This document shows, piece by piece, positions 1 through 54,214 of a stretch of DNA of 64,000 bases. Source of the DNA: Patescibacteria group bacterium (GTDB lineage: Bacteria > Patescibacteriota > Doudnabacteria > UBA920 > O2-02-FULL-48-8); contig DASUKB010000002.1 in assembly GCA_036278915.1 (NCBI GenBank), positions 30,152 through 94,151 of the forward strand, in the 5' to 3' direction. Position 1 is the stretch's first letter. Each line of letters starts with the position of its first letter. The notes under the pieces were generated by a model. It was not told the DNA's origin, ran no database searches, and worked only from the letters and a program-made list of their open reading frames with translations. Made by a program: the position numbers and the translations under genes.

Positions 1-37
1 TATAATATATTTCATTTAACTGTTGGGCTTGCTGCTT

Positions 38-1640
38 TTACTTATTTAAGCTTTCAGCAATACTATCAGCAATTTGTTGCTTTTTAATACCCATATAAGA
101 ATTTGGCACGTACATTATTTTCACATTTATTCTATTCTGTAAGTACATTGAGGCTTTATTAAGTTGCTCCGCATTCAAGTCAATATTCTGGTCTTGCATA
201 TAGAATCTTATAGCCTTCTCAGCGATTTTAAAATCGCCGTCACCATTTTCTATAAGAACATAGTAGGTTTGATCACTCGAAACAGAAGTACCTTGTAACG
301 AACTGGGCTCTTCAAGATTAGATGTACTCGCTCCTAAAATCTGAGTTCCACTAAGATCTGGCTTGGTCAATTCTTGATAAGCTATTGATATCACATCCAT
401 TGGTTCATAAGTCCGGCCAAAAGCTACTTTTTGAGCCATGCTACTCGATCCTAGCAGTACAACTACGACAACTGCAGTAATAAAGCTTACCTTCCCAAGC
501 ATTCTGTGAATATTGGCAATCCCCCAGTGGCTAACATTATTAGGATTATGTTTCATTCTAATTCTTCCGAAATTGCCACTTTTTTTAACGGTAACCACGT
601 AACGGTAAATTCCACACCAAAGTAGTACCGTTACTTGGAATAGCGCATAAATAGGAAAAATCAGCATCCATTTGCTTCTTACTTTCCAATTAGCAAAATA
701 TGTTAACACGGCGTATATCAGCATTAAAATTGGTAAAAGAATAATGTGTGATAGCAGCTCGTATAATTTAAGTGGTAACAAAAAATATATGATAAAGGTG
801 AAATAAATAAAGTGAAAGGGGTGATGTAAATTAGTATCCATGTTTATTACTGAATGCCTAAATGCACCGCACATCCAGGAAAATCTTTGTTTTATCCATT
901 TGCGAGTAGTTTCTGGGACATCGGTTTTAAAAACCATTGGAATATGTCCTACTTTATACCCCATCATATGTGCAAGCTTACCGATCTCGATGTCTCCACC
1001 GTTGAAGAACAATGAATGATTTTTCATTATACTAATCATTGTCTCTCTTTTCGCGATCATTCCGGCTCCACTAGTCAACCATGGGTAAAGCAACCTTGCT
1101 TGCATGGCAATGTCATATTCAACACCCTGTAATTTTTCGATTAAGGTCTTTCTTTTCCCGGGTAAAATTTTAACAGAAGCCAAGTCCCAATCCTTTTCGA
1201 CCATAGCCCCGCACAATTTTTTTACATCTCCTTCAACAGTAGTATCACCATCTATAAAGATGACATATTTTTCCTTAATATTGATAATACTTTCTTTCAA
1301 GACTGCATCATGTGCAAGTAGCGTTTTATTATAAATTGCCCAAGGGTTTTTAACACCCCCCCCCTAAATTAGATATAGTTATGCGGAAGCCGTACTTTTT
1401 CCGGAGTTCGTTAAGGGAATTACGGAATTCTTCAGTCTCATGGTTTGTAGTACAGAGGACTACCTTTCTTCCGAATTGCTTTATAAAATCAAGGTTCGTA
1501 AGATACTTAGTGTCGTTAAATATCGGCAAAAGAATAGCAAAATCAGTTGACTTCTTTTCAACTTTTTCTAAATCTAATGGTTTAATGAAATTGGAACGAG
1601 CAGTTCCAAAATCAAAAATTGTTAACCAAGGGAAAATCAT
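38..1640 (-). pseudogene. Processive family-2 glycosyltransferase with DxD 'DGD', a Q-R-F-S-W (QxxRW-type) motif, C-terminal TM helices and an extracytoplasmic tail. It is split into a 96-aa N-terminal ORF (1350..1640) and a 420-aa C-terminal ORF (38..1300) by a +/-1 frameshift inside a G9 run (plus-strand C9, 1356..1364).
   Basis: The N-terminal ORF ends ...ISNLGGGC* reading GGG codons through the homopolymer. The other frame continues ...GGGVKNPWAIYNKTLLAHDAVLKESIINIKEKYVIFIDGDT without a stop, so the 'TTG start' of the 420-aa ORF is an in-frame Leu. The GT2 hallmarks are ILLPIFND, FIDGDT and KQRFSWMCG. Confidence 0.6.
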
Positions 1641-1651
1641 AAATGATGCTA

Positions 1652-4531
1652 TTATTTTGCTTTAATTTTTTCTTTCAGCGCCTTGGCCAGGTACTGGCCG
1701 GTGTAGCTTTTGGAAACTTTTGCCACTTCTTCCGGTGTGCCCACGGCCACGATCTCCCCGCCCTTGTGTCCGCCTTCAGGACCCAAATCCACTATCCAGT
1801 CGGCGGATTTGATGACATCCAAGTTGTGTTCAATCACGAGCACGGTATTGCCTTTCTCCACCAGCCGATTCAAAACGCCAAGCAGCCGTTTGACGTCGTC
1901 GAAGTGCAGGCCAGTGGTGGGCTCATCCAATATGTAAAGCGTACGTCCGGTGGAGGCGCGCGAAAGTTCTGTGGCGAGCTTAATGCGCTGAGCTTCGCCG
2001 CCGGAGAGCGTAGTCGCCTGCTGGCCAAGGTGCATATAGCCCAAGCCGACCAGGGACAAAGTTTCCAGTTTGCGCGCAATCAGCGGAACGGCGCGGAAAA
2101 AAATGTGCGCCTCGTCCACTGTCATTTCCAGAACGTCAGAAATAGTTTTGCCTTTGTAGTGGATGTCCAAGGCTTCTTTGTTGTAGCGTTTGCCTTTACA
2201 TTCCTCGCAGGTGACGTAAACATCGGGCAAAAAGTGCATCTCTATTTTTATAACGCCATCGCCGCCGCAAACTTCGCAGCGCCCGCCTTTGACGTTGAAA
2301 CTGAATCGCCCGGCTTTGTACCCGCGCATTTTGGCTTCGGGAGTAGACGCAAACAGATCGCGTATATAGGTAAAGACTCCGGTGTAAGTGGCGGGGTTGG
2401 AGCGGGGCGTACGTCCGATAGGACTTTGGTCAATGTCTATGACCTTGTCTATATTTTCTATGCCGAGCAGTTTCTTGTGCGCGCCAGCCGCGTCTTTGGC
2501 ATTATAGAAATAAGCAGACAATGCCTTGGCAAGAATTTCGTTCATAAGCGTGGATTTGCCGGAGCCGGACACGCCAGTGAGCACGACAAATTTGCCCAAT
2601 GGAATATCCAAGTCCACGTTTTTGAGATTGTGCTCGGTGGCGCCTACGATGCGGATAGTCTTGCCATTGCCGCGTCGGCGCGTGGATGGCACGGGGATGT
2701 TTGCATTACCCGAAAGATACTGGCCGGTGAGCGACTTCGGGTCTTTGGCAATTTCCGAAGGCGTGCCCTCGGCCACCAGTTCCCCGCCGTGCTTGCCCGC
2801 GCCCGGACCGATGTCTATAACCCAGTCCGAGGCCTCTATGGTTTCCTGGTCATGCTCAACCACGATGACCGTGTTGCCCAGGTCGCGCAAATTTTTGAGA
2901 GTCTTAAGCAGGCGGTCGTTGTCGCGCTGGTGCAGACCGATGGATGGCTCATCCAATATGTACAGCACGCCGGTAAGGCCGGAACCGATTTGCGTGGCCA
3001 GGCGAATGCGCTGCGCTTCGCCGCCGGAGAGCGTGTCCGCGCTGCGGTCCAAAGTTAAATAATTTAAACCCACGTCCTGCAAAAATTTCAAGCGGGCCAC
3101 AATTTCTTTGAGCACCTGGTGCGAGATTTTGGCATCTTTTTCGGAAAATTTCTTGGGCAAGCCGGCGGCAAACGAGACTGTGTCGTCTATGGACAGCGAA
3201 GCCACATCAATAATTGATTTGTCGTCTATGGTCACGGCCAAAAATTCCGGCTTAAGCCTCATGCCTTTGCAAGTCGGGCAAGTTTTAACGCGCATATACT
3301 GTTCAATTTCCCCGCGCATATAGTCCGAATCCGTCTCGCGGTACTTGCGCATAAGGTTTGGAATGACGCCTTCAAAAGACGTAAACCGTTCGTAGCCGGA
3401 CTCGTCCTGTAGTTTAACTTTTTGGTCGCCGGTGCCATAGAGGATGGCGTCCACGACTTTCTTGGGCAAATCCCGCACCGGAGCATTTATGGAAAATCCA
3501 TAGTTTTTGGCAACTGAATCCAAAACCCTCATATACCAGCTCATGCGCGAAGTTGTTTTGCTCCAGGGACGCACTGCGCCCTCGGCCAGGGTCAGTTTTG
3601 GATTCGGGATCACCAGTTCCGGCACGATCTCAAGCCGGGTGCCCAAACCAGTGCAGTCGGTGCAGGCTCCGTGCGGCGAATTAAATGAAAAATTCCGCGG
3701 GTTGAGTTCCGGCAAGCTCATGTGCCCCAGTGGACAGGCAAAATTTGAGGACAAGAGGATTTCTTCATCTGTTTTATGACTTTTAACTTCTGCCTTCTCA
3801 CTTCTGACTTCCGACTTCTGAATTATTACCGTGTCATTGCCCAGATCCAAAGCCGTCTCCAGCGAATCGGCCAGGCGGGCGCGGTCGGATGAATCAAGGC
3901 TGATGCGATCCACGACAATTTCTATGGAATGTTTTTTCTTCTTATCAATATTGATGCGCAAAGCTTCCGACAAATCCATGACGGTGCCGTCAAAACGGAC
4001 GCGGGTGTAACCGGTTTTGCGCGCCTCCTCCAGGAGATGCTTGTGTTCGCCCTTCTGGTCGGAGATGACGGGTGAAAGGATTACAATTTTGGAATCCTTG
4101 GGCCAAGACAAAACCTGGTCTACCATTTGCGTCACGCTCATGCCCGCGATGCGCCGGCCGCAGACTGGACAGTGTGGCACGCCCACGCGCGCGTACAGCA
4201 GGCGCAGGTAGTCATAAATTTCCGTAACCGTACCCACGGTGGAACGGGGGTTGTGAGAAGCGCTCTTTTGGTCTATGGAAATGGCCGGCGATAAACCTTC
4301 AATCTTGTCTACGTCTGGCTTGTCCATAAGCCCGAGGAACTGCCGGGCGTAAGCCGACAAGCTCTCCACGTAACGGCGCTGGCCCTCGGCGTATATGGTA
4401 TCAAACGCCAGGGAAGATTTGCCTGAACCCGAAAGACCCGTGATGACCACGAGCTTGTCTCTAGGAATATCCACATCAATATTTTTGAGGTTGTGTACCC
4501 GCGCCCCGCGGACCACGATCTTGTCGGTCAT
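1652..4531 (-). CDS. uvrA: Excinuclease ABC subunit A (UvrA), 959 aa
   Basis: Two ABC ATPase modules ([20 protein letters not shown]), zinc-finger Cys clusters and LSGGEAQR signature motifs. Confidence 0.97.
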
Positions 4532-26537: not shown

Positions 26538-27377
26538 TCAGGACAGCGCCTCGTCGGATAGACATACCTCCACTTCGGGCGGATCAACGTCCATGTTCGG
26601 CAAGACCTGCGCCTTGCCAGTATGCACTCGCCCCTCCTCCTTGGACTTATACATGAGCTGGTCGGCCAAATGGAACAGCTTTTCAGCTAACACATTCACG
26701 GCCAACAGCTGCTGTTGCGGCTGGTGCAGCGTGAAAGCCAAACCGCCCACGGCCGCAGAATACGGCAAGCTGCCCGTATAGCCATGTTGTCGCTGACGTT
26801 TAGGATCGTCGATGGCGTCTTTGAGGCGCTCAGCGACGATTTTGATTTCATCCAGCCGCTTGAGTTCCACTGCGGCCAAAAATTCATCTCCGCCCCAGCG
26901 GCCAGCGTCCACGACCTCTTCTTTTTTCGAAACCCGCTCAAAGAAATCAGTGTCTCGGCTGGTCCGTATAGTTTCGCTGATGATCTCCGCCGTGGCTTGG
27001 ATCGCCTGGTCTCCAATTTTGTGCCCCAGCTTATCGTTGAGGGGCTTAAAATTATTGAGATCAATAAACACCAAGCCCAGAGCCGTAATGTCCGGCGTCT
27101 CCTCCGGCGTTTTTTCCAGGATGCCGCGCACGTGATTTTCGAACAGTTCCCGCAGCGGCAGCTTCGTCAGCTTGTCTCTGCCGGACTGCCGCTCCTTTTC
27201 CAGTATGTGTCGCTCCAGCACGCGAATGGCAGTTTCGTACTCGTCGGCTACTATATTCCAGTCATGGATGAATTCCAGCTGCTCATCTGCCGGAATACGC
27301 GTCAGCCATTTGCGGATACGGTCTGCCAGCTTTTCCTTAAAGGAGAGCTGGCCCGGTATTTCGGTGCCGTTCTCCAT
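26538..27377 (-). CDS. Diguanylate cyclase (GGDEF domain protein)
   Basis: LVFIDLNNFKPLND, the RWGGDEFL GG(D/E)EF motif, and a short N-terminal coiled-coil region. Confidence 0.8.
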   Translation of the reverse strand: MENGTEIPGQLSFKEKLADRIRKWLTRIPADEQLEFIHDWNIVADEYETAIRVLERHILEKERQSGRDKLTKLPLRELFENHVRGILEKTPEETPDITALGLVFIDLNNFKPLNDKLGHKIGDQAIQATAEIISETIRTSRDTDFFERVSKKEEVVDAGRWGGDEFLAAVELKRLDEIKIVAERLKDAIDDPKRQRQHGYTGSLPYSAAVGGLAFTLHQPQQQLLAVNVLAEKLFHLADQLMYKSKEEGRVHTGKAQVLPNMDVDPPEVEVCLSDEALS

Positions 27378-42011: not shown

Positions 42012-44012
42012 ATGCCATTCAAACTTCACTCTCCATTCCAACCCTCCGGTGATCAGCCGCAGGCCATAGAGAAACTCGTCAAAGGTCTGGGAAAAAAATA
42101 CCGCTACCAGACGCTTTTGGGCGTGACCGGCTCGGGCAAAACTTTCACCATGGCCAATATCGTGGCACAAATCCAGCGGCCGACTTTGGTGATTTCCCAC
42201 AACAAAACTTTAGCCGCGCAGCTGGCGAGCGAATTCCAGGATTTTTTTCCGGACAACGCAGTCCACTACTTCGTATCTTATTACGATTATTACCAACCGG
42301 AGGCTTACATTCCCCGCTCCGACACTTACATCGAAAAGGAAACGGAAATCAACGAGGAGATAGACAAACTTCGCAACGCCGCCACCCAAAGCCTGCTTTC
42401 CCGGTCCGATGTGCTCATCGTGGCTTCGGTTTCATGCATTTATGGTTTGGGTAATCCGGGCAATTACCTGGAACTGTCGATTCCCCTGAAAGTCGGAATG
42501 TCGATTAAGCGCGACAAGTTCCTTCGCCGACTGACCGACCTGCAATTTGGACGAAACGATATAAATCTGACGCGCGGCGCCTTTCGCGTGCGCGGCGATA
42601 CTATTGAACTCATCCCTTCCTCCGCGGACAAAATCTTGCGCATCAATTTTTTTGGCGACGAAATTGAAAAAATTTCCGAGCACGACCCGCTCACCGGCGA
42701 AGATTTTGGCACGCGCGAGGAGCTGACGATTTTTCCGGCCAAACATTTCGTAACCCCGCGCGAGAAGATGCTCTCGGCCATAGAAAACATCCGCTCCGAA
42801 ATGGCCGCCCAGGTCAAATTTTTCAAATCACAGGGAAAAGAAATAGAAGCACAGCGCATAGAACAGCGCACCAACTTTGATATCGAGATGATGCTTGAGA
42901 CGGGCTACGTCAACGGCATTGAAAACTATTCGCGCCACTTGGACTCCCGCAAGCCCGGCGAGCCGCCCAGCACGCTGCTTGATTATTTTCCGGATGATTT
43001 TCTGCTGTTTATCGACGAGTCGCATATGACCCTGCCGCAAATTTCCGGCATGTACTTTGGCGACAAATCGCGCAAAGATACGCTCATCAATTACGGTTTC
43101 CGACTACCAAGTGCTGCCGACAATCGCCCGCTGCAATTTTCCGAATTTGAGAAAAAAATTGACCAGACAATCTTTGTCTCCGCCACTCCGTCCAAAGAAC
43201 GTGAACTGGCTATCTCCAAACAGGTTGCCGAGCAGCTCATCCGTCCGACTGGCCTGCTGGATCCGGAAATTGAAATTCGGCCGACCAAAAATCAGGTCGA
43301 CGACCTGATGGAAGAAATCCGCAAGCGCGTGACCAAAAAGCAAAGAGTGCTAGTGACTACTCTTACCAAAAACATGGCGGAAGAACTGTCGAATTATTTG
43401 AGTGAATACCGCATTCGCGTACACTACCTGCACTCGGAAGTGGACACGCTTAAGCGCCTGGAAATTTTACGCGATCTGCGCCTCGGCGTGTACGACGTGG
43501 TCGTGGGCATAAACCTTTTGCGCGAAGGTTTGGATTTACCCGAAGTCTCACTCGTGGCGATTCTCGACGCGGACAAAGAAGGTTTCCTGCGTTCCGAAAC
43601 GTCTTTGGTTCAGACTATGGGCCGGGCCGCCCGGCACGTTGACGGCCATGTGATAATGTACGCGGACAGAATCACGGGCTCTATGCAGCGGGCCATAGAT
43701 GAAGTCGCCCGCCGGCGCAAAATCCAGAAAAAATACAACCTTGACCACGGCATTACGCCCAAGGGAATTGAAAAAGCCATCAAAGAAACAAGACTGGCCG
43801 GCAAAAAACTGGAAGAAGAAAAAATGCAGGCGGTCAAAGACTTGGATCTGGCCAAAATGAGCAAACAGGATATCGCCTACGCCATCGAAGAGCTGCGCGA
43901 CCAGATGGATATGGCTTCAAAAAATTTAGATTTTGAAAAAGCCGGAGAGCTGCGCGACCAAATCGCGGCCATCCGCGCCAAAACCCGCATGAAGAAACAC
44001 AAATTTAGTTAG
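42012..44012 (+). CDS. uvrB: Excinuclease ABC subunit B
   Basis: Helicase motifs [10 protein letters not shown] and DESH, beta-hairpin, C-terminal UVR domain ([13 protein letters not shown]). Confidence 0.97.
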
Positions 44013-44051
44013 GAAATAGTAAAGAGTAACGAGGAAGTAGGATTGACTTTG

Positions 44052-44080
44052 AAACGACGTCGTGCTACTATTTTTAAGCT
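44052..44080 (+). promoter_or_regulatory. Candidate rpsT promoter TTGACT-17 nt-TACTAT, lying inside an inverted repeat that encloses the leader
   Basis: ttgact at 44052..44057; tactat at 44075..44080. Confidence 0.3.
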
Positions 44081-44147
44081 TTGATAAGTTTTCGTGTCGC
44101 GAGACCTATCATTCTCATTACTATTTACTCGTTACTAATTACTATTT

Positions 44148-44411
44148 ATGCCAAATACAAAGTCGGCCATGAAGGCCATGCGGCAAAATCTCAAACGCCG
44201 CCAAATCAACCTCAAAGTTTTGGATTCAGTTAAGAAAACATCCAAAGCTGCACGCAAAGCCATTGCCGGAGGCAAGAAAGGCGACCTTAATAAGGCGCTA
44301 TCCGCCGCGTACTCCGCGCTCGATAAGGCTGCCAAGAAAAACGTCATCCACAAAAACACCGCCTCCCGCAAAAAATCCAGACTGGCAGCCATGGTTGCCA
44401 AAGTCAAATAA
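44148..44411 (+). CDS. rpsT: 30S ribosomal protein S20
   Basis: MPNTKSAMKAMRQNLKRR...Lys/Ala-rich, 87 aa. Confidence 0.9.
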   Translation: MPNTKSAMKAMRQNLKRRQINLKVLDSVKKTSKAARKAIAGGKKGDLNKALSAAYSALDKAAKKNVIHKNTASRKKSRLAAMVAKVK

Positions 44412-44413
44412 AA

Positions 44414-44445
44414 TTACCCCGGATTCATTCCGGGGTTTTTATTTG
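44414..44445. terminator. Intrinsic terminator ccccgga-ttcat-tccgggg followed by TTTTTATTTG
   Basis: Perfect 7-bp GC stem plus T-run after rpsT. Confidence 0.6.
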
Positions 44446-44479
44446 TATAAAAACAGCACGTCACAAGTCCTCTTAGGCG

Positions 44480-45181
44480 TTACGGTTCGAGGACAATTTG
44501 GTTGTCTACAATTTTGAATTTAAATACCCCTAACTTACCCGTATACGGATAACTGAATGTGAACTCAGTTAAATCTGGCGGTACTATAAAATTAAGTTTT
44601 TGGTCCATGTAAGTAACATCGGCCTGCATCGAACAGCCACCCGAAGCAACGAAATAAAATTGCCGATTGTTGGGTCCAAAAAAATCATTTTGAGCATCGA
44701 CGCGCCTCAATTGTGGCAGCGATGCACAGCCCGCTGTAGGTGAAAAGATTTTTAACCCGAATGACACACCAGGCACAATATCGCCAACTTTATAATTAGT
44801 GCTCTCAGGAGAAATAAGAGCATTTAATTTATACTTGCCATAACTGATACTAGTAATCGTATATTGGACATCCTGCTCTTTCCAAGTAATTGCTTGACTG
44901 GGATTCAAATTCAAAGTGACAACCGACTGAGGCGATAAAGTATTTACATTATAGTCATAATCATTGTTACTGAGTTGAACAGGAGCAGAGACATTGTGGG
45001 CTGTGGTCTGCATGGTCGCTTGATCAGCAAGTTTAGTCTGGTACGTTGGAATATTTCCAAAGTAAAAAATTCCTGCCACCAAAAGCGCGGTCAGAATGTT
45101 AGTTAGAATCATTAACCGTATGGTGTGGAACCTTGCCGTTGATTGTAAATCTGGTTTCGGGGGCTGTGGAATATTTTCCAT
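44480..45181 (-). CDS. Hypothetical membrane-anchored extracytoplasmic protein (233 aa); its N-terminus MENIPQPP is shared with the 29955..30530 gene
   Basis: N-terminal tail plus one TM helix, Gln/Thr/Asn-rich beta-rich ectodomain, two Cys. Confidence 0.45.
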   Translation of the reverse strand: MENIPQPPKPDLQSTARFHTIRLMILTNILTALLVAGIFYFGNIPTYQTKLADQATMQTTAHNVSAPVQLSNNDYDYNVNTLSPQSVVTLNLNPSQAITWKEQDVQYTITSISYGKYKLNALISPESTNYKVGDIVPGVSFGLKIFSPTAGCASLPQLRRVDAQNDFFGPNNRQFYFVASGGCSMQADVTYMDQKLNFIVPPDLTEFTFSYPYTGKLGVFKFKIVDNQIVLEP

Positions 45182-45247
45182 AAACTCATTATAGCATCAG
45201 CGATTGCTAGTGTTTACTAAAAATTAATTCAAGCATATGATTACGAC

Positions 45248-45781
45248 ATGGGAATAATTGCTATATTATTTTTGTGGCCATTCTTAATCATTGCCCTGGG
45301 CTTAGTCTTTGTAGCTTTCGGCAGCTTATTTAACATCGGACTTGCTTGGCTCTTTATATTTTTGGCATTGATCTTGTTGTTTATCTTAATTTCACAACAG
45401 AACAATCATCATTTCGCCAGTACAAAAACCCGCATGACTAGTTGGGAGGAATTGCACGTTTTACGGGAGATGGTTATTACTATGTCCATCAGCCTGCTGA
45501 TTCCTATCTTTACTCGGTATTTGCTTGATAGTTTTCATAAAAACCTTATTTCAGTAATTGCTGGATTAATCATCGGCTTTAGTCTTACCACTTGGGGTAT
45601 GTTTATTAAGAACAATAAGGTGTTAATGTACAGCAACATCTTCGGCGGCTCACTCACAATCATTTATGTTTATGTTCAACTCTGGGAATTAGGCTCGTTG
45701 GCTAGAGTTATTGCTGCGGCGTTTGGTTTAATTGCAGCAGTGACCATCTCCACGATTAAGTTAAAAGAGAAACTTTCATGA
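45248..45781 (+). CDS. Hypothetical integral membrane protein (177 aa)
   Basis: 5-6 TM helices; first gene of a two-gene operon (ATGA overlap with the next gene). Confidence 0.45.
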   Translation: MGIIAILFLWPFLIIALGLVFVAFGSLFNIGLAWLFIFLALILLFILISQQNNHHFASTKTRMTSWEELHVLREMVITMSISLLIPIFTRYLLDSFHKNLISVIAGLIIGFSLTTWGMFIKNNKVLMYSNIFGGSLTIIYVYVQLWELGSLARVIAAAFGLIAAVTISTIKLKEKLS

Positions 45782-46167
45782 CAACAGACAAAAACAGCCT
45801 TAAATTTATTTTTGGTCTAATTATTTTCATGTTTAGTTTGGCCTTGGCCTACTTTACTGCCTCTTATCTCTCCAAAGCATACACTATTGACTACTGGGGT
45901 GCACTTCTGATTTTTGGAGTTGTCTATATAGTCATTGGAATTATCATTTACCAGGTGTATGCAGTTAGTTTGGGTTTTTTGTTTGCCGCCTCAGTATTGG
46001 TTCTACATTTACTACTCGAAAATTTTGGCAATATCCCGAGTCCGGCCAAAACTCTCATCATTGGCGCTGTATTGGTTGTCCTCTATCTGGTCGCTTGGGA
46101 GAAGTTGGATGAAACCCAATCAGATAATCTTCCCCCAACTCCCCCTCCGACATCTCCAGTGAACTAA
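45778..46167 (+). CDS. Hypothetical integral membrane protein (129 aa) with proline-rich C-terminal tail (LPPTPPPTSPVN)
   Basis: 4 TM helices; the tail is encoded by cttcccccaactccccctcc, resembling the 5' module of the palindromic element. Confidence 0.45.
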   Translation: MTTDKNSLKFIFGLIIFMFSLALAYFTASYLSKAYTIDYWGALLIFGVVYIVIGIIIYQVYAVSLGFLFAASVLVLHLLLENFGNIPSPAKTLIIGAVLVVLYLVAWEKLDETQSDNLPPTPPPTSPVN

Positions 46168-49085: not shown

Positions 49086-49655
49086 ATGCCGCAAGAATCA
49101 GTAGAAAACTTACAAGATCTTCTGGTTATAAAACTGCAAGCGCTCTACGACACGGAGCAGCAGCTTGTGGAGGCGCTGCCGAAAATGGCCACCGCCGCAA
49201 CGGACGAGGATCTCAAAAAAGCTTTCGAAAGCCATTTGGAAGAAACCCGCATGCACGTCAAAAACCTGGAACAGGCCTTTAGTGAACTCGAGCTTACACC
49301 CGAAGCGCTTCCGGGAAATGCTATCCGCGGTTTGGTTTCGGATACAGAATGGTGTATCGACCATATCAAAAATGCCAAAACCCTGGATGCGGCGTTGGTA
49401 GCCGCCGGCCAAACAGCCGAGCACTATGAAATGGCTGAGTACGCCGCAGCCCAAGGCTTTGCGGTTACTATGGGGCACACGCAAGTCGAGACCCTGCTTT
49501 CCGAAAACTACCTGTCGGAAAAAGAAGCATCTGAAAAACTCAAGGGCCTGGCTATGGCCAAACTCAATGATGCAGCCAACGACGTGGTTGAAGAAGAAAG
49601 CGTAATTGACAAAGGCAAGGAATTTTTGGGCAAACTGGAAACAGGAAGCGTTTAG
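49086..49655 (+). CDS. Ferritin-like YciE/DUF892-family protein
   Basis: LQDLLVIKLQALYDTEQQLVEALPKMA and a second helical repeat typical of DUF892. Confidence 0.7.
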   Translation: MPQESVENLQDLLVIKLQALYDTEQQLVEALPKMATAATDEDLKKAFESHLEETRMHVKNLEQAFSELELTPEALPGNAIRGLVSDTEWCIDHIKNAKTLDAALVAAGQTAEHYEMAEYAAAQGFAVTMGHTQVETLLSENYLSEKEASEKLKGLAMAKLNDAANDVVEEESVIDKGKEFLGKLETGSV

Positions 49656-49697: not shown

Positions 49698-51335
49698 TTA
49701 TTCTTCTGTGACTCGGAAAACCTCTTCGATATCGGTAATTCCCTGCAAGGTTTTCAGAATGCCATCTTGGGCCATGGTCAGCATACCATCGGAAATGGCT
49801 TGGTTTCGAACGTCCGACGTCGTAGCTTCTTTGTGGATGAGCGACTCTATCGCGTCATTGACGGTGAAAATTTCATAAACGCCAATCCGCCCTTTGTAGC
49901 CCAGGCCGTTGCATTCAGGACATCCGGGAGAATGGTAAAACGATAAATCTTTAGGCACTTTTACTTTGGCAGCGGCAGGGATAGCCTTGAGGATCATCTG
50001 CACATGCGCCACGGCGCGGGCGTTCGGCTCGTAGGTAGTTTTGCAGTGCGGGCAGAGCCGCCGGACTAACCGCTGGGCAATAATGGCGTTCACGGCGGGT
50101 GCCAACACAAATGGCTTAACGCCTAGATCAAGCAGGCGCGGGATCGCGGATGGCGCGTCGTTGGTGTGCAAAGTCGAGAGCACGATGTGTCCGGTCAGCG
50201 CGGCCTGGCTTGCAGTTTCCGCGGTTTCCAAATCGCGCATTTCACCGACCATAACGATGTCAGGGTCCTGTCGCAAGATCGAACGCAGCGCGTCGGCAAA
50301 CGTTAAACCAGTAGATGCACCAACCGGCGTCTGGGTAATGCCGTCAATTTTGTATTCCACCGGATCTTCAATCGTAATAATTTTCACACCCGGCTCATTG
50401 AGTTTGTTTAGAATAGCGTACAAAGTCGTGGTCTTGCCCGAACCCGTCGGTCCGGTGGTGAGAATCATGCCGTTCGGCTTTTGCATTTCGGACAAAAGCT
50501 TCTCGCTTGCCGAACCCGTAATCCCCAGGTCTTCAAATTTAAGGCTGCCTTTGTCCTGTCGTAAAATTCTCATCACAATTGACTCGCCATAAGCTGAGGG
50601 CAGAACCGAAACGCGGATATCGACGTGGGTGCCGCCTGAAGTTAAGCTAAACGATCCGTCCTGCGGCGTATTTGTAATATTAAGTTTGAGTTTGGATAAA
50701 ATTTTGATGCGCGAAACTAGCTGATGGTGCTGCTCTTTGGGCAAGATTGCCACATCCTGCAGCACGCCGTCGAGCCGGAAACGAATTTTGAGCCCTTGCT
50801 GTTCCGGTTCGATGTGGATGTCCGAAGCGTTTATGGATAATCCCGCGGAAAGCAAAGCTTCCATCATTTCGGTCACAGATACACCTTGCAGCTTTTCTGA
50901 TAAATCCTTGAGGGACTCAATCTGGACCTTGCCGGTTGCGGCAAGTTTGATTTCGGAGGATTTGCGTTCGACGTGAATGACTTTGGAATATGATTCCATT
51001 GCGCGCTTAAAGCTTGAATCGGAAATGAGATAAACCTCCATAAAGTAACTCTGCTTTTTAAAATCCGAGACAAGAGTGGCGATGGCCGATGAGGGTTCCA
51101 GCATGCCGATTTTGAGGTTGCGTCCTTCCTTGTAGAATACCACAACTCCCAGCTGTTCGGCTTGGATTTTGGGCACCAAAGCCAAAGCCGCCGCATCAAT
51201 TGGAAATCCGTAAAGGTTGATGTACGCGAGTTTGAGATCTTTGGCGCGTCTTTGTGTTTCTTCTTCTTCAAATTTCCGGTCCAGTTCCGAATAGACTTGC
51301 TTAATCCGGACAGACCGATCTATGGGATTGAGCAT
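49698..51335 (-). CDS. pilB: Type IV pilus / type II secretion assembly ATPase (PilB/GspE family)
   Basis: N-terminal GSPII_E_N-like region, Walker [15 protein letters not shown], Asp and His boxes, C-terminal tetracysteine (CPHC...CPEC). Confidence 0.9.
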
Positions 51336-51373
51336 AACTGATATAAGTATACCAGTTTTGCAAAAAAACGCAT

Positions 51374-52516
51374 TTATGCCGCTTGTCTTGCCGCTTCTTC
51401 CTTGATTTTAGCCAATATTTCCGCCTGGACGTCGGACAAACCCTTGGGGATTTTAAATTTAACAACTTGAGTATCCAAAACTTCCGGCGAGTAAGAGGCA
51501 AACACATCGGACGGCTCGAGACTGCCGGTGCTGCCTAGATAAACATTGACGCCCATGCTTGATTCGGCCAAAAACAAGAATACTTTGGCAAATTTCAGCT
51601 GCTGCTTCATCTCAAAAATAATTTCCTCCACATCGGAATCCAAAGCCTGCGAGGAAGCCACGTCAGTGGAAGACAAACTTGAATACACAAGATTTGTTTC
51701 GGGCTCGTGCTGGAGGTTTTCCAAAACTCTGCCCCAAAGCCTAAGCAGCCCCAGAGATTTGGTACGGTAAAGATTGGAAATTATATCTTGCTGCCGCGCG
51801 CCCGCATCCACAAGCCTGGAAGCCTTAAAAAATGCGGCAGGAGAAGCCTTTTGATTTTGAAAACCGTCAGTTGCACTCATAAGTCCGGACAAAAGCAGTG
51901 TTGCTGTGATTTCGTCAACAAAACTTGCGTCTATACCGAACAAAAGATCGAATACAATTTCTGAAACACTGCCAGAAGTTAAATCAACGAGGTTGACTTG
52001 GCCAAAAGACTCATTCTGCGGCCGGAAATCAATATTAATTTTTGGCGTGTTAAAAAATAACGGCGCGTGCGATGCGTAAAGCGGTCCTAAATCCGAAAGT
52101 CTCGCTACACCCAAAGTCACAACCAAATCATAGGGGTAAGCGGAGGGGTCAATGCTTACGTCGGATGGCTCAAACTGTCCGGATTTGGGAGCAACCACAA
52201 TCCGTAACTTATCGCTCATTTTTTCGTAAGATAATTCAGCAACTTCCGTATTTTTAAAACCAATATCCAAAACCAAGCTCCGGACAATTTGAGTCTGAAC
52301 CGCTATGCCTGATTCGGGCAAAAACGACAATTTTTTTGACAGTTCCTTGGGGCTCAATACTGCAGTCTTTTTCCCTTGACGGTTAAGGAAATGCCGGAGT
52401 GCCAAGCCCGCGGCCGCGGAATCAGGGTTACTGCCTGAGCCTAGCACCAGCAGAATATTTCCCGCGGCAGTGAGCAGGCGTTTGGCTTGATTTAATTTTT
52501 CAGCATCTGTTGGCAT
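51374..52516 (-). CDS. DHH/DHHA1-family (NrnA-like) protein with degenerate catalytic motifs, directly upstream of pilB
   Basis: Motif order matches NrnA, but motif I H..H..D.D reads LGSGSNPDS, the DHH motif reads DFR (NIDFRPQNE), and the GGGH region is altered. Motif IV-like SGLMSATDGF is retained. Confidence 0.45.
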   Translation of the reverse strand: MPTDAEKLNQAKRLLTAAGNILLVLGSGSNPDSAAAGLALRHFLNRQGKKTAVLSPKELSKKLSFLPESGIAVQTQIVRSLVLDIGFKNTEVAELSYEKMSDKLRIVVAPKSGQFEPSDVSIDPSAYPYDLVVTLGVARLSDLGPLYASHAPLFFNTPKINIDFRPQNESFGQVNLVDLTSGSVSEIVFDLLFGIDASFVDEITATLLLSGLMSATDGFQNQKASPAAFFKASRLVDAGARQQDIISNLYRTKSLGLLRLWGRVLENLQHEPETNLVYSSLSSTDVASSQALDSDVEEIIFEMKQQLKFAKVFLFLAESSMGVNVYLGSTGSLEPSDVFASYSPEVLDTQVVKFKIPKGLSDVQAEILAKIKEEAARQAA

Positions 52517-52593
52517 AATATTGTGTTAAATCTAGATATCGTAACGGCTTTGCGGTTTCTTGTCAATTTGGGTGTAAATGTTAGAATAAAGCC

Positions 52594-53058
52594 ATGAATC
52601 CCGCCAGAAATAAATCTCAAACGAAGTCCTCTGCTGGTACTAAGTTTAACTTAAATCTGGATGGGGTTAAGCATTTGGCCACAAAGCTTGCGCGGCAATA
52701 TCGGACCCGCGACGCAGCCATTGGACTGGTGGGACCGCTAGGCGCTGGTAAAACGGCGTTCGCCAAAGAATTTGCCAAATTTTTTGGCGTCAAAAAAGTC
52801 AAAAGTCCGACCTTTATGGTTTCCGCTCGGTACGAAATCGGCAAACGCACGCTATTCCACTTCGATCTGTATCGCATAGACAATCCGGGTAAACTTAAAG
52901 CCCTGGATCTGGAAGAAATTCTAGCCAGTAAAAACCGCATCGTGCTCATTGAGTGGGCGGATAAATTTCCAAAGCTCCATCCCAAGCTTAATCTCCTGCT
53001 CAAATTTGAAGTCACTGGTAAAAATCTACGCCATGTCACACTCCACAAAAAACTCTAA
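52594..53058 (+). CDS. tsaE: tRNA threonylcarbamoyladenosine biosynthesis ATPase TsaE (YjeE)
   Basis: P-loop GPLGAGKTAFAK, SPTFMV motif, 154 aa with a 30-aa N-terminal extension. Confidence 0.8.
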   Translation: MNPARNKSQTKSSAGTKFNLNLDGVKHLATKLARQYRTRDAAIGLVGPLGAGKTAFAKEFAKFFGVKKVKSPTFMVSARYEIGKRTLFHFDLYRIDNPGKLKALDLEEILASKNRIVLIEWADKFPKLHPKLNLLLKFEVTGKNLRHVTLHKKL

Positions 53059-54214
53059 CCATACTCTCTATATTCGCGCCGCAGTCCTTGCGTCCGTCTT
53101 GATTTTCGGCGCATTTTTATTTATTCCAAAAAGTTCCTTGGCTAAAACTTTCACTTACCAAACGCAGAGCTTTGACGTTGATTCGGTCTTGACTAAAGAT
53201 AGCCAAAACACAATCGGCCGCCAAGTCGATCTTTTAAGCCTTGCCCGCCACCAGCTCCTACAGCAATCCTACAGTCAAACAGTTGCAGTGCCTGCCGCTC
53301 AAACGCAAACCCAGATTGCAGCAATCGAACAGGCGGTCAATCACCCGATGCAAAACGCCCGGCTTTCCATAAAAGATAACTGGGCCACGACCTTTGTCCC
53401 AAATCAGGACGGCCTAACCCTGGATACTTTTGCGCTGATAAATGAACTGCCCGAAAACAGCGATGGACAATTGCCGCTCGTAACTTCCAAACCCGAAGTA
53501 ACGCTGGCGGATCTGAATAACCTCGGAATTACAGAATTGGTGGCCACGGGCGAATCGGATTTTACGGGATCCACAGCCAACCGCCTGACCAACATCAAAG
53601 TTGGAGCTGCCAAATACAATGGCCTCATAGTGGCACCGGGTGCGGAATTTAGTTTCAACCAGATTTTGGGAGACGTGGACGCGGCCCACGGGTTCAAACC
53701 GGAGTTAGTCATCAAAGCATCCGGAGTGGTGCCGGAATTCGGTGGTGGCTTGTGCCAAGTCTCAACCACAGTCTTCCGCGCGGCCATGAATGCCGGCTTC
53801 CCTGTCACCGAACGGCGCAACCATTCGTTTGCCGTTAAGTTTTACGCGCCCCAGGGCACGGACGCCACCATTTACCCGGGCGTTTCGGATTTTAAATTCG
53901 TCAACAATATGGCTGGCAACATCCTGATCTGGACGCGAATCGAAGGCAATAAACTTTACTTTGATATTTATGGCACCAAGGACGACCGGCAAGTCACGTT
54001 TGAGGGCCCATATACTTATGATCGCAAGTCAAACGGCGCGCTCAAGGCCGTGTGGACGCGAGATGTTATAATTGATGGACAGAAAACCGAACAAGTGTTC
54101 AACAGCAACTATCTGCCTCCATCAGAATTTGAGGGCAGTGAAAAGGAAGTTTCCTCCACTCCTAATCCGCAGGCCACGCCTACTCCGGCCAATAATCCAG
54201 TTCCTGCGACTTAA
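53033..54214 (+). CDS. VanW-family protein with N-terminal membrane anchor
   Basis: GGGLCQVSTTVFRAAMNAG VanW core; probable start MSHSTK at 53033, overlapping the tsaE 3' end. Confidence 0.7.
   Translation: MSHSTKNSNHTLYIRAAVLASVLIFGAFLFIPKSSLAKTFTYQTQSFDVDSVLTKDSQNTIGRQVDLLSLARHQLLQQSYSQTVAVPAAQTQTQIAAIEQAVNHPMQNARLSIKDNWATTFVPNQDGLTLDTFALINELPENSDGQLPLVTSKPEVTLADLNNLGITELVATGESDFTGSTANRLTNIKVGAAKYNGLIVAPGAEFSFNQILGDVDAAHGFKPELVIKASGVVPEFGGGLCQVSTTVFRAAMNAGFPVTERRNHSFAVKFYAPQGTDATIYPGVSDFKFVNNMAGNILIWTRIEGNKLYFDIYGTKDDRQVTFEGPYTYDRKSNGALKAVWTRDVIIDGQKTEQVFNSNYLPPSEFEGSEKEVSSTPNPQATPTPANNPVPAT

Follow-up and report, generated by a model that had tools for sequence, protein, structure and literature searches.

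Our analysis points to a clade-specific, NrnA-type pseudoenzyme that may act as a non-catalytic partner of the adjoining orphan PilB/GspE-family ATPase, a reading whose chances we rate as about even. The two proteins are encoded on the minus strand of the window, by which we mean the whole stretch of 64,000 nucleotides of Patescibacteria DNA that was analysed: the pseudoenzyme, which we term DHHL (a catalytically degenerate DHH/DHHA1 protein of 380 aa), at 51374..52516, and the ATPase, hereafter window PilB, a hexameric secretion ATPase of 545 aa, at 49698..51335. The original prediction had described the first of them as a catalytically degenerate, NrnA-like DHH/DHHA1 protein, and alignment, a phmmer search of the PDB and Foldseek searches with an AF2 model all bore this out. 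It is the gene context that suggests partnership with the ATPase, which we consider the most likely role. The association had been put forward as undescribed, and indeed no description of it was found in the searched literature.

The DHHL open reading frame, taken from the ORF listing of the window, starts with ATG, and its product is identical to the NCBI MAG protein P0001, annotated 'hypothetical protein [Patescibacteria group bacterium]'. A word-indexed search retrieved 54 homologues, the best of them at E=1e-108 with 49-51% identity. The Pfam scan of DHHL gave no DHH/DHHA1 match (PF01368/PF02272), even at E<=1, and with the NCBIfam NrnA model NF053633 the protein scored 16 bits (E=0.0044), below the equivalog cut-off of 350 bits. 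Some members of the DHHL clade carry a precomputed PF01368 match. The phmmer search of the PDB matched DHHL to the NrnA-type structure 4ls9 (E=1.4e-10) and to 13 further NrnA/RecJ-like chains. Using the AF2 model (pLDDT 90.7), Foldseek matched TM1595, Rv2837c and the Bacteroides/Bacillus NrnA proteins at E=1e-22 to 1e-18, the best E-value being 1.5e-22, with a probability of 1.00 for TM1595, Rv2837c, NrnA and GdpP. The DHH/DHHA1 homology of DHHL is remote yet genuine. The DHH domain covers approximately residues 1-200 and has a beta-rich segment of some 50 residues inserted into it (~72-127); it is followed by a linker (~200-265) and by the DHHA1 domain (~268-380). Inspection of the N-terminus ruled out both a signal peptide and a membrane anchor, and DHHL is a cytoplasmic, well-folded protein with the nanoRNase DHH/DHHA1 fold. 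Its closest matches, in sequence (E=1e-10) as in structure (E=1e-22 by Foldseek), are the NrnA-type stand-alone phosphodiesterases, which include B. subtilis NrnA/YtqI, M. tuberculosis Rv2837c/CnpB, M. smegmatis MSMEG_2630 (4ls9), T. maritima TM1595 and Bacteroides fragilis Nrn. DHHL shares with these enzymes the two-domain fold, the motif order, a similar length and the cytoplasmic location, but it differs from them in its active site, in failing the Pfam and NCBIfam thresholds, in adjoining a PilB-family ATPase gene, and in the beta-rich insertion, which is placed between motifs I and II and is common to the intact Patescibacteria sister clade.

Active-site residues were mapped from NrnA_Bs to the window protein in a multiple alignment that included intact relatives and, separately, in the alignment that phmmer made to 4ls9. 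Seven residues make up the active site of NrnA_Bs: H20, D24, D26, D80, H103, H104 and D156 (PMC9757072). Only one of the seven is retained in DHHL. In motif I, H20 corresponds to G26 and D24 to N30, while D26 is kept as D32; D80 corresponds to G136, H103 to F164, H104 to R165 and D156 to A215. The prediction that the metal-binding residues are lost held for six of the seven positions but not for one motif-I Asp, and the predicted degeneration of DHH was seen again on realignment, where GGGH was not intact either. The motifs for substrate recognition in DHHA1 are GGGH-xx-ASG and RxRxR (PMC9757072); at the GGGH site DHHL reads P-E-V-L (344-347) and at the RxRxR site YLGST. The stretch SGLMSATDGF, thought at the outset to be a preserved substrate-binding motif, proved to be a metal-ligand motif instead: its G, T and F are retained, its canonical Asp is replaced by A215, and the motif is therefore not functionally retained. 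Double mutation of D80 and D156 abolishes NrnA activity (PMC9757072), and the equivalents of these two residues in DHHL are Gly and Ala. From its residues, DHHL is predicted to have lost two-metal phosphodiester hydrolysis.

DHHL is under strong purifying selection, with dN/dS values of 0.03-0.07 in orthologue pairs, the same as for PilB; these values rule out that the gene is a decaying pseudogene. In an NJ tree of 80 species-level Patescibacteria loci the degenerate, pilB-linked proteins are monophyletic, and the catalytically intact Patescibacteria proteins form their sister clade. Positions D30, D136, H164, H165, D215, D301 and GGGH are invariant in the intact clade and varied in the linked clade, where the fold residues remain conserved, so that relaxed selection appears to be limited to the catalytic positions. 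With its catalytic residues lost, its fold retained and purifying selection acting on it, DHHL has the hallmarks of a pseudoenzyme, the loss of activity itself being predicted.

The downstream gene had been called pilB, and its product does belong to the PilB/GspE family: it matches PF00437 (T2SSE) at E=3e-123 and Geobacter PilB (5zfr) at E=1.5e-111 in a PDB search, and its Walker A, Asp box, Walker B, His box and CxxC...CxxC zinc motif are intact by regular-expression search. In NCBIfam it scored 511 bits with the GspE model TIGR02533 and 488 bits with the PilB model TIGR02538, both sub-equivalog (cut-offs of 630 and 675.65 bits, respectively). Neither pilC/M/N/O/T nor any other pil gene was found within the 64 kb of the window or over some 8 kb past its right edge, and by score as well as by location the protein falls outside the type IV-A PilB equivalog. 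Nor did other pil genes figure in the gene families that recur across 80 related loci, whose flanks extended up to 6 kb. With no other pil gene within ~70 kb, the connection of DHHL to a pilus is indirect, and to assign DHHL an accessory role in type IV pilus machinery, as was originally suggested, would take two inferential steps, because the pilB here is an orphan. The N-terminus of window PilB is short and lacks an MshEN-type c-di-GMP motif. Control by c-di-GMP through this N-terminus was considered and rejected, as the Pfam MshEN match (23.3 bits) spans the generic GspE N1 part only, and the RLGxxLLxxGLI motif is absent from window PilB and from the linked PilBs (0/61).

DHHL and pilB have the features of an operon: they lie on one strand, the gap between them is short, it holds no terminator, and the arrangement is kept across species. 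The spacer from the DHHL stop to the pilB ATG (51336..51373, minus strand) measures 38 nt, not the 39 nt first given, the common strand being as predicted. The terminator scan found no terminator-like hairpin in it, which is compatible with co-transcription of the two genes. On its other side DHHL is separated by a divergent intergenic region of 77 nt (52517..52593) from tsaE (52594..53058, plus strand; PF02367, E=2e-29), which encodes the t6A ATPase. This region contains a sigma-70-like pair on the minus strand, TTGACA-17-TACGAT at 52566..52538, pointing into DHHL, and a second such pair on the plus strand pointing into tsaE; both come from consensus matching only, in a scan in which the number of sites was not above that in shuffled sequences. 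The three genes form a conserved block in which tsaE diverges from DHHL and DHHL leads into pilB. Around DHHL lie housekeeping genes, namely dnaA, dnaN, recF, ruvB, tsaE, polA, uvrB and ruvA.

Conservation of the gene pair in related genomes, one of the checks named in the original prediction, which its absence would have refuted, proved strong across Patescibacteria. Our survey drew on 80 species-level loci; 68 loci of the degenerate clade were evaluable, and 10 intact relatives served for comparison. Of the 68 evaluable loci, 57 have a pilB gene downstream on the same strand within 400 nt, and 63 have one within 3.2 kb; four loci have no pilB nearby and one has it on the opposite strand. None of the 10 genes of the intact sister clade has pilB near it. 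The median spacer between DHHL and pilB is 78 nt (54 related loci), and the genes found inserted between the two are mobile-element genes, a reverse transcriptase and 23S-IVP. ORF clustering of the 80 loci gave TsaE, PilB, RuvB, VanW, a bPH-domain protein and PolA as recurrent neighbours, and no further conserved partner gene beyond these.

Such conservation might also reflect synteny without coupling, DHHL having an independent, non-enzymatic housekeeping role within an origin-proximal block that is inherited intact in genomes that are small and seldom rearranged. We regard this as rather unlikely, although several results are in its favour. The housekeeping block is long, and tsaE is kept beside DHHL no less frequently than pilB (of 79 related loci, 62 have tsaE divergent upstream and 61 have pilB), which leaves room for other causes of the block's conservation. 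A mirror-tree comparison of DHHL and PilB in 31 loci gave a raw r of 0.77 and a partial r of 0.09 given RuvB, that is, no co-evolution beyond shared phylogeny. No DHHL-PilB fusion was present among the best 150 representatives, the long proteins among which have low-complexity C-terminal tails, none matching PilB, TsaE, PolA, VanW or RuvB; and adjacency is lost in four to five loci. Against synteny alone stands the behaviour of the pair when its surroundings change: RuvB, VanW and PolA are placed and oriented differently in the Doudnabacteria-like group and the Moranbacteria-like group, whereas DHHL and pilB stay adjacent and co-directional, with short spacers. The pair is kept, moreover, at a depth where PilB proteins share 41-44% and DHHL proteins 31-35% identity, and gene pairs conserved at such depth are usually functionally linked. 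Loss of catalysis also coincides with linkage to pilB.

If DHHL is indeed a partner of the ATPase, the two genes would be co-transcribed from the promoter region common to the divergent tsaE, and DHHL, probably dimeric like NrnA, would serve as an adaptor, scaffold or regulator. It could bind the hexameric motor or the motor's N-terminal domain and thereby control the assembly, localisation or activity of the ATPase, which might itself drive a type IV pilus, a competence pilus or a secretion process. A dedicated interface would predict residues strongly conserved in the linked clade alone, and no such residue was found. There may be a precedent for such an arrangement. Cdc45 and the archaeal RecJ-like/GAN-type CMG subunits are DHH-fold proteins that have lost nuclease activity and are non-catalytic partners of a hexameric ATPase motor; by analogy, DHHL may serve a hexameric ATPase in the same manner. 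The parallel consists in an inactive DHH fold beside a hexameric ATPase, but the complex is established for those proteins and only inferred for DHHL. The RecJ-Cdc45 structure 7bih is among the Foldseek matches of DHHL, at rank 49. The proteins differ also in descent and partner, Cdc45 and its RecJ-like relatives being of the RecJ branch, from another domain of life, and acting with MCM, while DHHL is of the NrnA branch and adjoins PilB/GspE. Known regulators of PilB/GspE, such as the c-di-GMP-binding MshEN domain, PilZ-FimX and the cytoplasmic domains of GspL/PilM, act from the cytoplasm and control the extension ATPase by binding to its hexamer or to its N-terminal region. DHHL is proposed to fill the same niche, but their folds are unrelated to its own and none is a DHH protein. 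In a stronger and more doubtful version, DHHL would be an obligate, lineage-specific subunit of the PilB motor across much of the Patescibacteria, a dimeric scaffold seated on the ATPase hexamer or on the N-terminal domain of the ATPase and gating pilus extension, DNA uptake or secretion; its gating might then respond to nucleotide status, replacing the missing MshEN/c-di-GMP input.

The dead site might, on the other hand, still bind a dinucleotide, nanoRNA or cyclic dinucleotide and signal its presence to PilB, which we think distinctly unlikely. The NrnA D80N/D156N mutant still binds dinucleotides, but this binding needed a divalent metal (PMC9757072), and DHHL is without six of the seven metal/active-site residues. 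Several residues around the old active site are strongly conserved in the linked clade (D32, N161, D163, T216, S218, F219 and Q220), and in 35 of 63 sequences position 165 has Arg or Lys, a basic side chain that could take the place of a metal in contacting phosphate. Sensing would also fit with linked PilBs that have no MshEN c-di-GMP motif and with a window that encodes a GGDEF protein whose GGDEF motif is intact. Other features of DHHL speak against it. Loss of the motif-IV Asp, a metal ligand, makes a canonical nucleotide-binding site unlikely, and with GGGH and RxRxR gone as well, the suggestion that DHHL senses nucleotides or oligonucleotides in the canonical way finds no backing in the sequence. 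DHHA1 is the least conserved part of the protein in the linked clade, with no position beyond 285 reaching 85% conservation. D32 lies at the N-terminus of helix 31-46 in the AF2 model, and its conservation may therefore be structural.

That DHHL is still an enzyme, with reduced or alternative catalytic residues or another substrate, and is merely co-transcribed with pilB, seems to us very improbable. Some linked-clade members (e.g. L034-L048) do retain DHH and the motif-II Asp and have Glu in place of the motif-IV Asp, and the JGI annotation of several members is nanoRNase/pAp phosphatase. Nor was a further member of the family, able to provide the activity in its place, found in the genomes behind the 80 loci: each of these loci has a WGS prefix of its own, and a profile of the intact members, which had more than 3,900 matches, gave none assigned to a known DHHL contig among the 120 matches listed. 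DHHL, however, lacks both of the Asp residues that NrnA needs for activity (PMC9757072). The GGGH His is retained in only 2% of the linked clade, and the substitutes at each catalytic position vary widely from species to species, which indicates relaxed constraint and not a new conserved active site. Least likely of all is that DHHL works with TsaE in the t6A tRNA-modification pathway and not with PilB: tsaE is its immediate divergent neighbour in most loci, across short shared intergenic regions, and persists in L051, where pilB is absent, but the two genes are divergent and not co-directional, DHHL-pilB occurs without tsaE in L056 and L073 (more than 5 kb upstream inspected), and no connection of DHH proteins with t6A synthesis is known to us.

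In another bacterium with a reduced genome an NrnA homologue heads an operon for surface attachment or motility: Mycoplasma pneumoniae MPN140 (M. genitalium MgpA) is encoded by the first gene of the P1 adhesin operon. MPN140 differs from DHHL in being an active nanoRNase/pAp phosphatase, and it shares its operon with adhesins, where DHHL adjoins a secretion ATPase. The ultrasmall, host-dependent Patescibacteria are believed to depend centrally on type IV pili for host attachment, movement and DNA uptake, and these bacteria often lack the regulators familiar from model bacteria. A dead-enzyme gene tied to a PilB-family ATPase offers a concrete candidate for a pilus-motor control factor. If DHHL does partner the ATPase, it would provide a bacterial example of the DHH nuclease fold reused, without catalysis, in the service of a hexameric ATPase; if it were an obligate subunit, it would represent a new class of accessory protein for type IV filaments and correspond, in bacteria, to Cdc45 on MCM. 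At present, members of the family carry the annotation 'DHH family phosphoesterase' or 'nanoRNase/pAp phosphatase', which probably overstates the capacity for RNA turnover and c-di-AMP hydrolysis in metabolic reconstructions of Patescibacteria genomes. The degenerate family is large: about 115 of the best 150 50%-identity cluster representatives keep at most four of eight catalytic positions.

The open reading frame at 51374..52516 on the minus strand (ATG start, 380 aa), here termed DHHL, encodes a protein identical to P0001, a 'hypothetical protein [Patescibacteria group bacterium]' of an NCBI metagenome-assembled genome, and has dozens of full-length homologues with identities of 31-51% (top E ~1e-108). 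The Pfam DHH and DHHA1 models did not match it, even at E<=1, and the NCBIfam NrnA equivalog reached 16 bits (cut-off 350). Although these curated models fail, NrnA-type homology is solid, in line with the original prediction. In a phmmer search of PDB sequences the top match was 4ls9, the M. smegmatis NrnA homologue (E=1.4e-10), with further matches to Bacteroides Nrn, TM1595, Rv2837c and the Bacillus and Staphylococcus NrnA proteins, and Foldseek recovered the same proteins (E=1e-22 to 1e-17) from an AlphaFold2 model with a mean pLDDT of 90.7 (26 sequences as input). TM-scores were modest (0.48-0.57) and the rmsd large, which may reflect domains set at another angle and an extra segment of about 50 residues. 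This beta-rich insertion (~72-127, four strands in the model) separates DHH motifs I and II. The degenerate clade has it, as do the catalytically intact Patescibacteria proteins of the sister clade, and a canonical 327-aa NrnA (P0054) lacks it; the sole Pfam signal of the insertion is a weak AMIN match (E=0.16). By fold DHHL belongs to the NrnA branch of the DHH/DHHA1 superfamily, and it stands outside the functional NrnA family, as none of the defining catalytic features tested was found intact.

The active site of B. subtilis NrnA comprises H20, D24, D26, D80, H103, H104 and D156, RNase activity is undetectable once both D80N and D156N are introduced, and GGGH-xx-ASG and RxRxR in DHHA1 are likely substrate-recognition elements (PMC9757072). 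We assigned the corresponding motifs of DHHL by alignment with its motif-complete relatives P0054, P0049 and P0045, cross-checked by pairwise alignment to 4ls9. The seven active-site positions read G26, N30, D32, G136, F164, R165 and A215, leaving one of seven and neither Asp of the inactivating double mutant, while GGGH is replaced by P-E-V-L (344-347) and RxRxR by YLGST. The predicted loss of the metal-binding residues was thus borne out on realignment, with neither DHH nor GGGH intact. The part of the prediction that did not stand concerns SGLMSATDGF, taken for a retained substrate-binding motif: its G, T and F are kept, but the Asp that serves as metal ligand is Ala. The remaining D32 sits in the first part of helix 31-46 of the model, and so its conservation may be structural.

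DHHL is not a decaying gene, as this is ruled out by dN/dS values of 0.074, 0.032 and 0.065 in orthologue pairs unsaturated at synonymous sites (0.040 and 0.042 for PilB of the same genomes). We compared 63 sequences of the linked clade (degenerate relatives with pilB nearby) with 11 intact ones, and the positions invariant in the intact set yet variable in the linked set were the catalytic and substrate positions. Retention in the linked sequences was 10% for D30, 35% for D136, 44% for H164, 24% for H165, 0% for D215 and 6% for D301, and in GGGH it was 40% for the first Gly and 2-3% at each of the other three positions. Both sets share the fold-core residues N161, D163, N168, N175, G211, T216, F219, LWGR 260-263 and D285. 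The substitutes at the lost catalytic positions vary between species, and DHHA1 is the least conserved portion of the protein in the linked clade. When 1.84 billion cluster representatives were searched exhaustively with a profile, 2,948 clusters matched at E<=1e-30; among the best 150 of these, about 115 keep at most four of eight catalytic positions and 28 keep seven or eight. Taken together, this pattern marks a pseudoenzyme family that is both maintained and large. Several degenerate homologues (among P0004, P0005, P0014, P0021-P0025 and P0027) carry enzyme names, 'nanoRNase/pAp phosphatase (c-di-AMP/oligoRNAs hydrolase)' at JGI and 'DHH family phosphoesterase' at NCBI, which are probably wrong given the loss of catalytic residues.

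In the window, DHHL is followed on the same strand by pilB (49698..51335) after an operon-like spacer of 38 nt, in which a terminator scan found no terminator-like hairpin. The order tsaE (divergent), DHH-like gene, T2SSE ATPase recurred in all four degenerate homologues looked up (34-47% identity), whereas two homologues with intact motifs had unrelated gene contexts. A survey with a single genome for each GTDB species gave 80 loci, which we examined by tblastn, ORF clustering and a table of motifs; 70 belong to the degenerate clade, and 68 of those were evaluable. In 57 of the 68, pilB follows in the same direction within 400 nt (median spacer 78 nt), and in six it follows 0.6-3.2 kb downstream, behind inserted genes; it adjoins on the opposite strand in one, and in four it was not found within 4.2 kb or more. 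Neither pilB nor tsaE occurred within flanks of ~5 kb in any of the eight surveyed loci with fully intact motifs. When the two intact homologues from the look-ups are added to these eight, pilB is near 64/68 degenerate and 0/10 intact genes (Fisher's exact test, p=8e-10), and as the sequences are non-independent this amounts to a single ancient event followed by long maintenance. The initial observation of a degenerate DHH-like gene beside pilB is thereby confirmed and much strengthened; the interpretation first attached to it finds partial support. The pair is kept in Moranbacteria-like genomes despite PolA and RuvB switching side and strand. The genes inserted between its members include a reverse transcriptase (PF00078, L037:9021-10139, +) and a 23S-rRNA-intervening-sequence protein (PF05635, L042:7248-7643, +), typical mobile-element cargo. 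An NJ tree groups the degenerate pilB-linked proteins together in a single clade, with the intact clade as its sister. The proteins of two loci, L088 and L092, group with the intact clade, are partly degenerate (e.g., GGGH changed to HGRGT or SGTEE) and have no pilB nearby, so DHH/DHHA1 degeneration has taken place without pilB linkage as well.

Among 79 loci, tsaE neighbors the DHH-like gene in 62 and pilB in 61; what is conserved is a triad, tsaE <-> DHHL -> pilB. The block stops at pilB, since the next position is variable: the window has a DUF892 (ferritin-like) gene (49086..49655, +) that converges on pilB and separates it from polA, and relatives have a 301-aa unknown protein (L007), a PaaX_M protein (L009), no gene of at least 60 aa (L002) or just a 44-aa ORF call (L001).

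The window ATPase (PF00437, E=3e-123) matches the Geobacter and Myxococcus PilB structures (E ~1e-111 to 1e-107) and has intact Walker A, Asp box, Walker B, His box and tetracysteine motifs. It is an orphan: no pilC, pilM, pilN, pilO, pilT or pilin gene was found in the 64 kb, whose genes are those of replication, repair and translation (dnaA, dnaN, recF, ruvB, polA, uvrA/B/C, ruvA, rpoB/C and others), nor any other pil gene in the next ~8 kb past the right edge, and none of these pil families recurs beside DHHL among the 80 related loci. As CPR type IV pilus genes, PilB included, co-localise in numerous genomes (Méheust et al., PMC6744442), the window ATPase may be a second, specialised PilB paralogue. 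Linked PilBs have short N-termini, and the MshEN c-di-GMP-binding motif was present in 0/61; a weak Pfam 'MshEN' match in the window protein spans the generic N1 domain only and was rejected. The same genome encodes a diguanylate-cyclase-like protein of 279 aa (26538..27377, -) whose GGDEF domain (PF00990, E=2e-22) has its GGDEF motif intact ('GRWGGDEFLAAV'). The ATPase ORF that follows the DHH-like gene in two Moranbacteria-like genomes (L071:9631-12663, + and L083:7801-10821, +) is 1,006-1,010 aa long with two T2SSE stretches (PF00437, 754-760 bits), and resembles two PilB/GspE-type ATPase modules fused in tandem.

DHHL thus appears to be a pseudoenzyme derived from a known family of enzymes; its genomic partnership is new and conserved, and we read the functional meaning of that partnership from gene context. 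The retained fold, the lost catalytic and substrate residues, the purifying selection and the conserved co-directional adjacency to an intact ATPase suggest, at about an even chance, that DHHL and pilB are transcribed together and that the dead NrnA-type protein, possibly dimeric like NrnA, would serve the ATPase without catalysis as an adaptor, scaffold or regulator. Inactive DHH proteins that serve a hexameric ATPase include Cdc45 and the archaeal RecJ-like CMG subunits, the nearest precedent for this likely way of working. Conserved synteny without functional coupling is doubtful by comparison and keeps weight because no DHHL-PilB fusions were found among the best 150 of the 2,948 cluster representatives, no co-evolution was seen beyond phylogeny in 31 loci, no interface-like residues were conserved solely in the linked clade (63 vs 11 sequences), and tsaE is equally well conserved. 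A ligand sensor, as first proposed, is improbable, since dinucleotide binding by an NrnA mutant requires metal (PMC9757072), whereas the metal ligands of DHHL are gone and DHHA1 is its least conserved domain. That DHHL is still an enzyme is very unlikely, and that it functions with TsaE slightly more so.

A genomic-context precedent is MPN140 of M. pneumoniae, an active NrnA whose gene leads the P1 adhesin operon and which has no assigned adherence role (PMC7156367). In the full-text literature searched, with most subscription journals outside its coverage, no description of this association of a DHH/NrnA protein with PilB or type IV pili in CPR/Patescibacteria was found, and the widespread and clean association is, as had been supposed, apparently undescribed. 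Papers on CPR pili and genetics do not mention DHH (10.64898/2026.03.03.709456, PMC12206443, PMC10187176, PMC6744442), and NrnA and phosphoesterase are also absent from the first three.

Two segments of the window, 1..2000 and 44001..46000, are low in G+C (0.39-0.40 vs ~0.49 elsewhere), and the two ORFs of the latter (44480..45181, - and 45248..45781, +) have no Pfam match. On the far side of tsaE (52594..53058, +), a VanW ORF listed mechanically at 52949..54214 (+) from a TTG start shares 110 nt with its end, and VanW probably begins downstream of 52949, although tsaE/VanW overlaps of 20-50 nt were also called in related loci.
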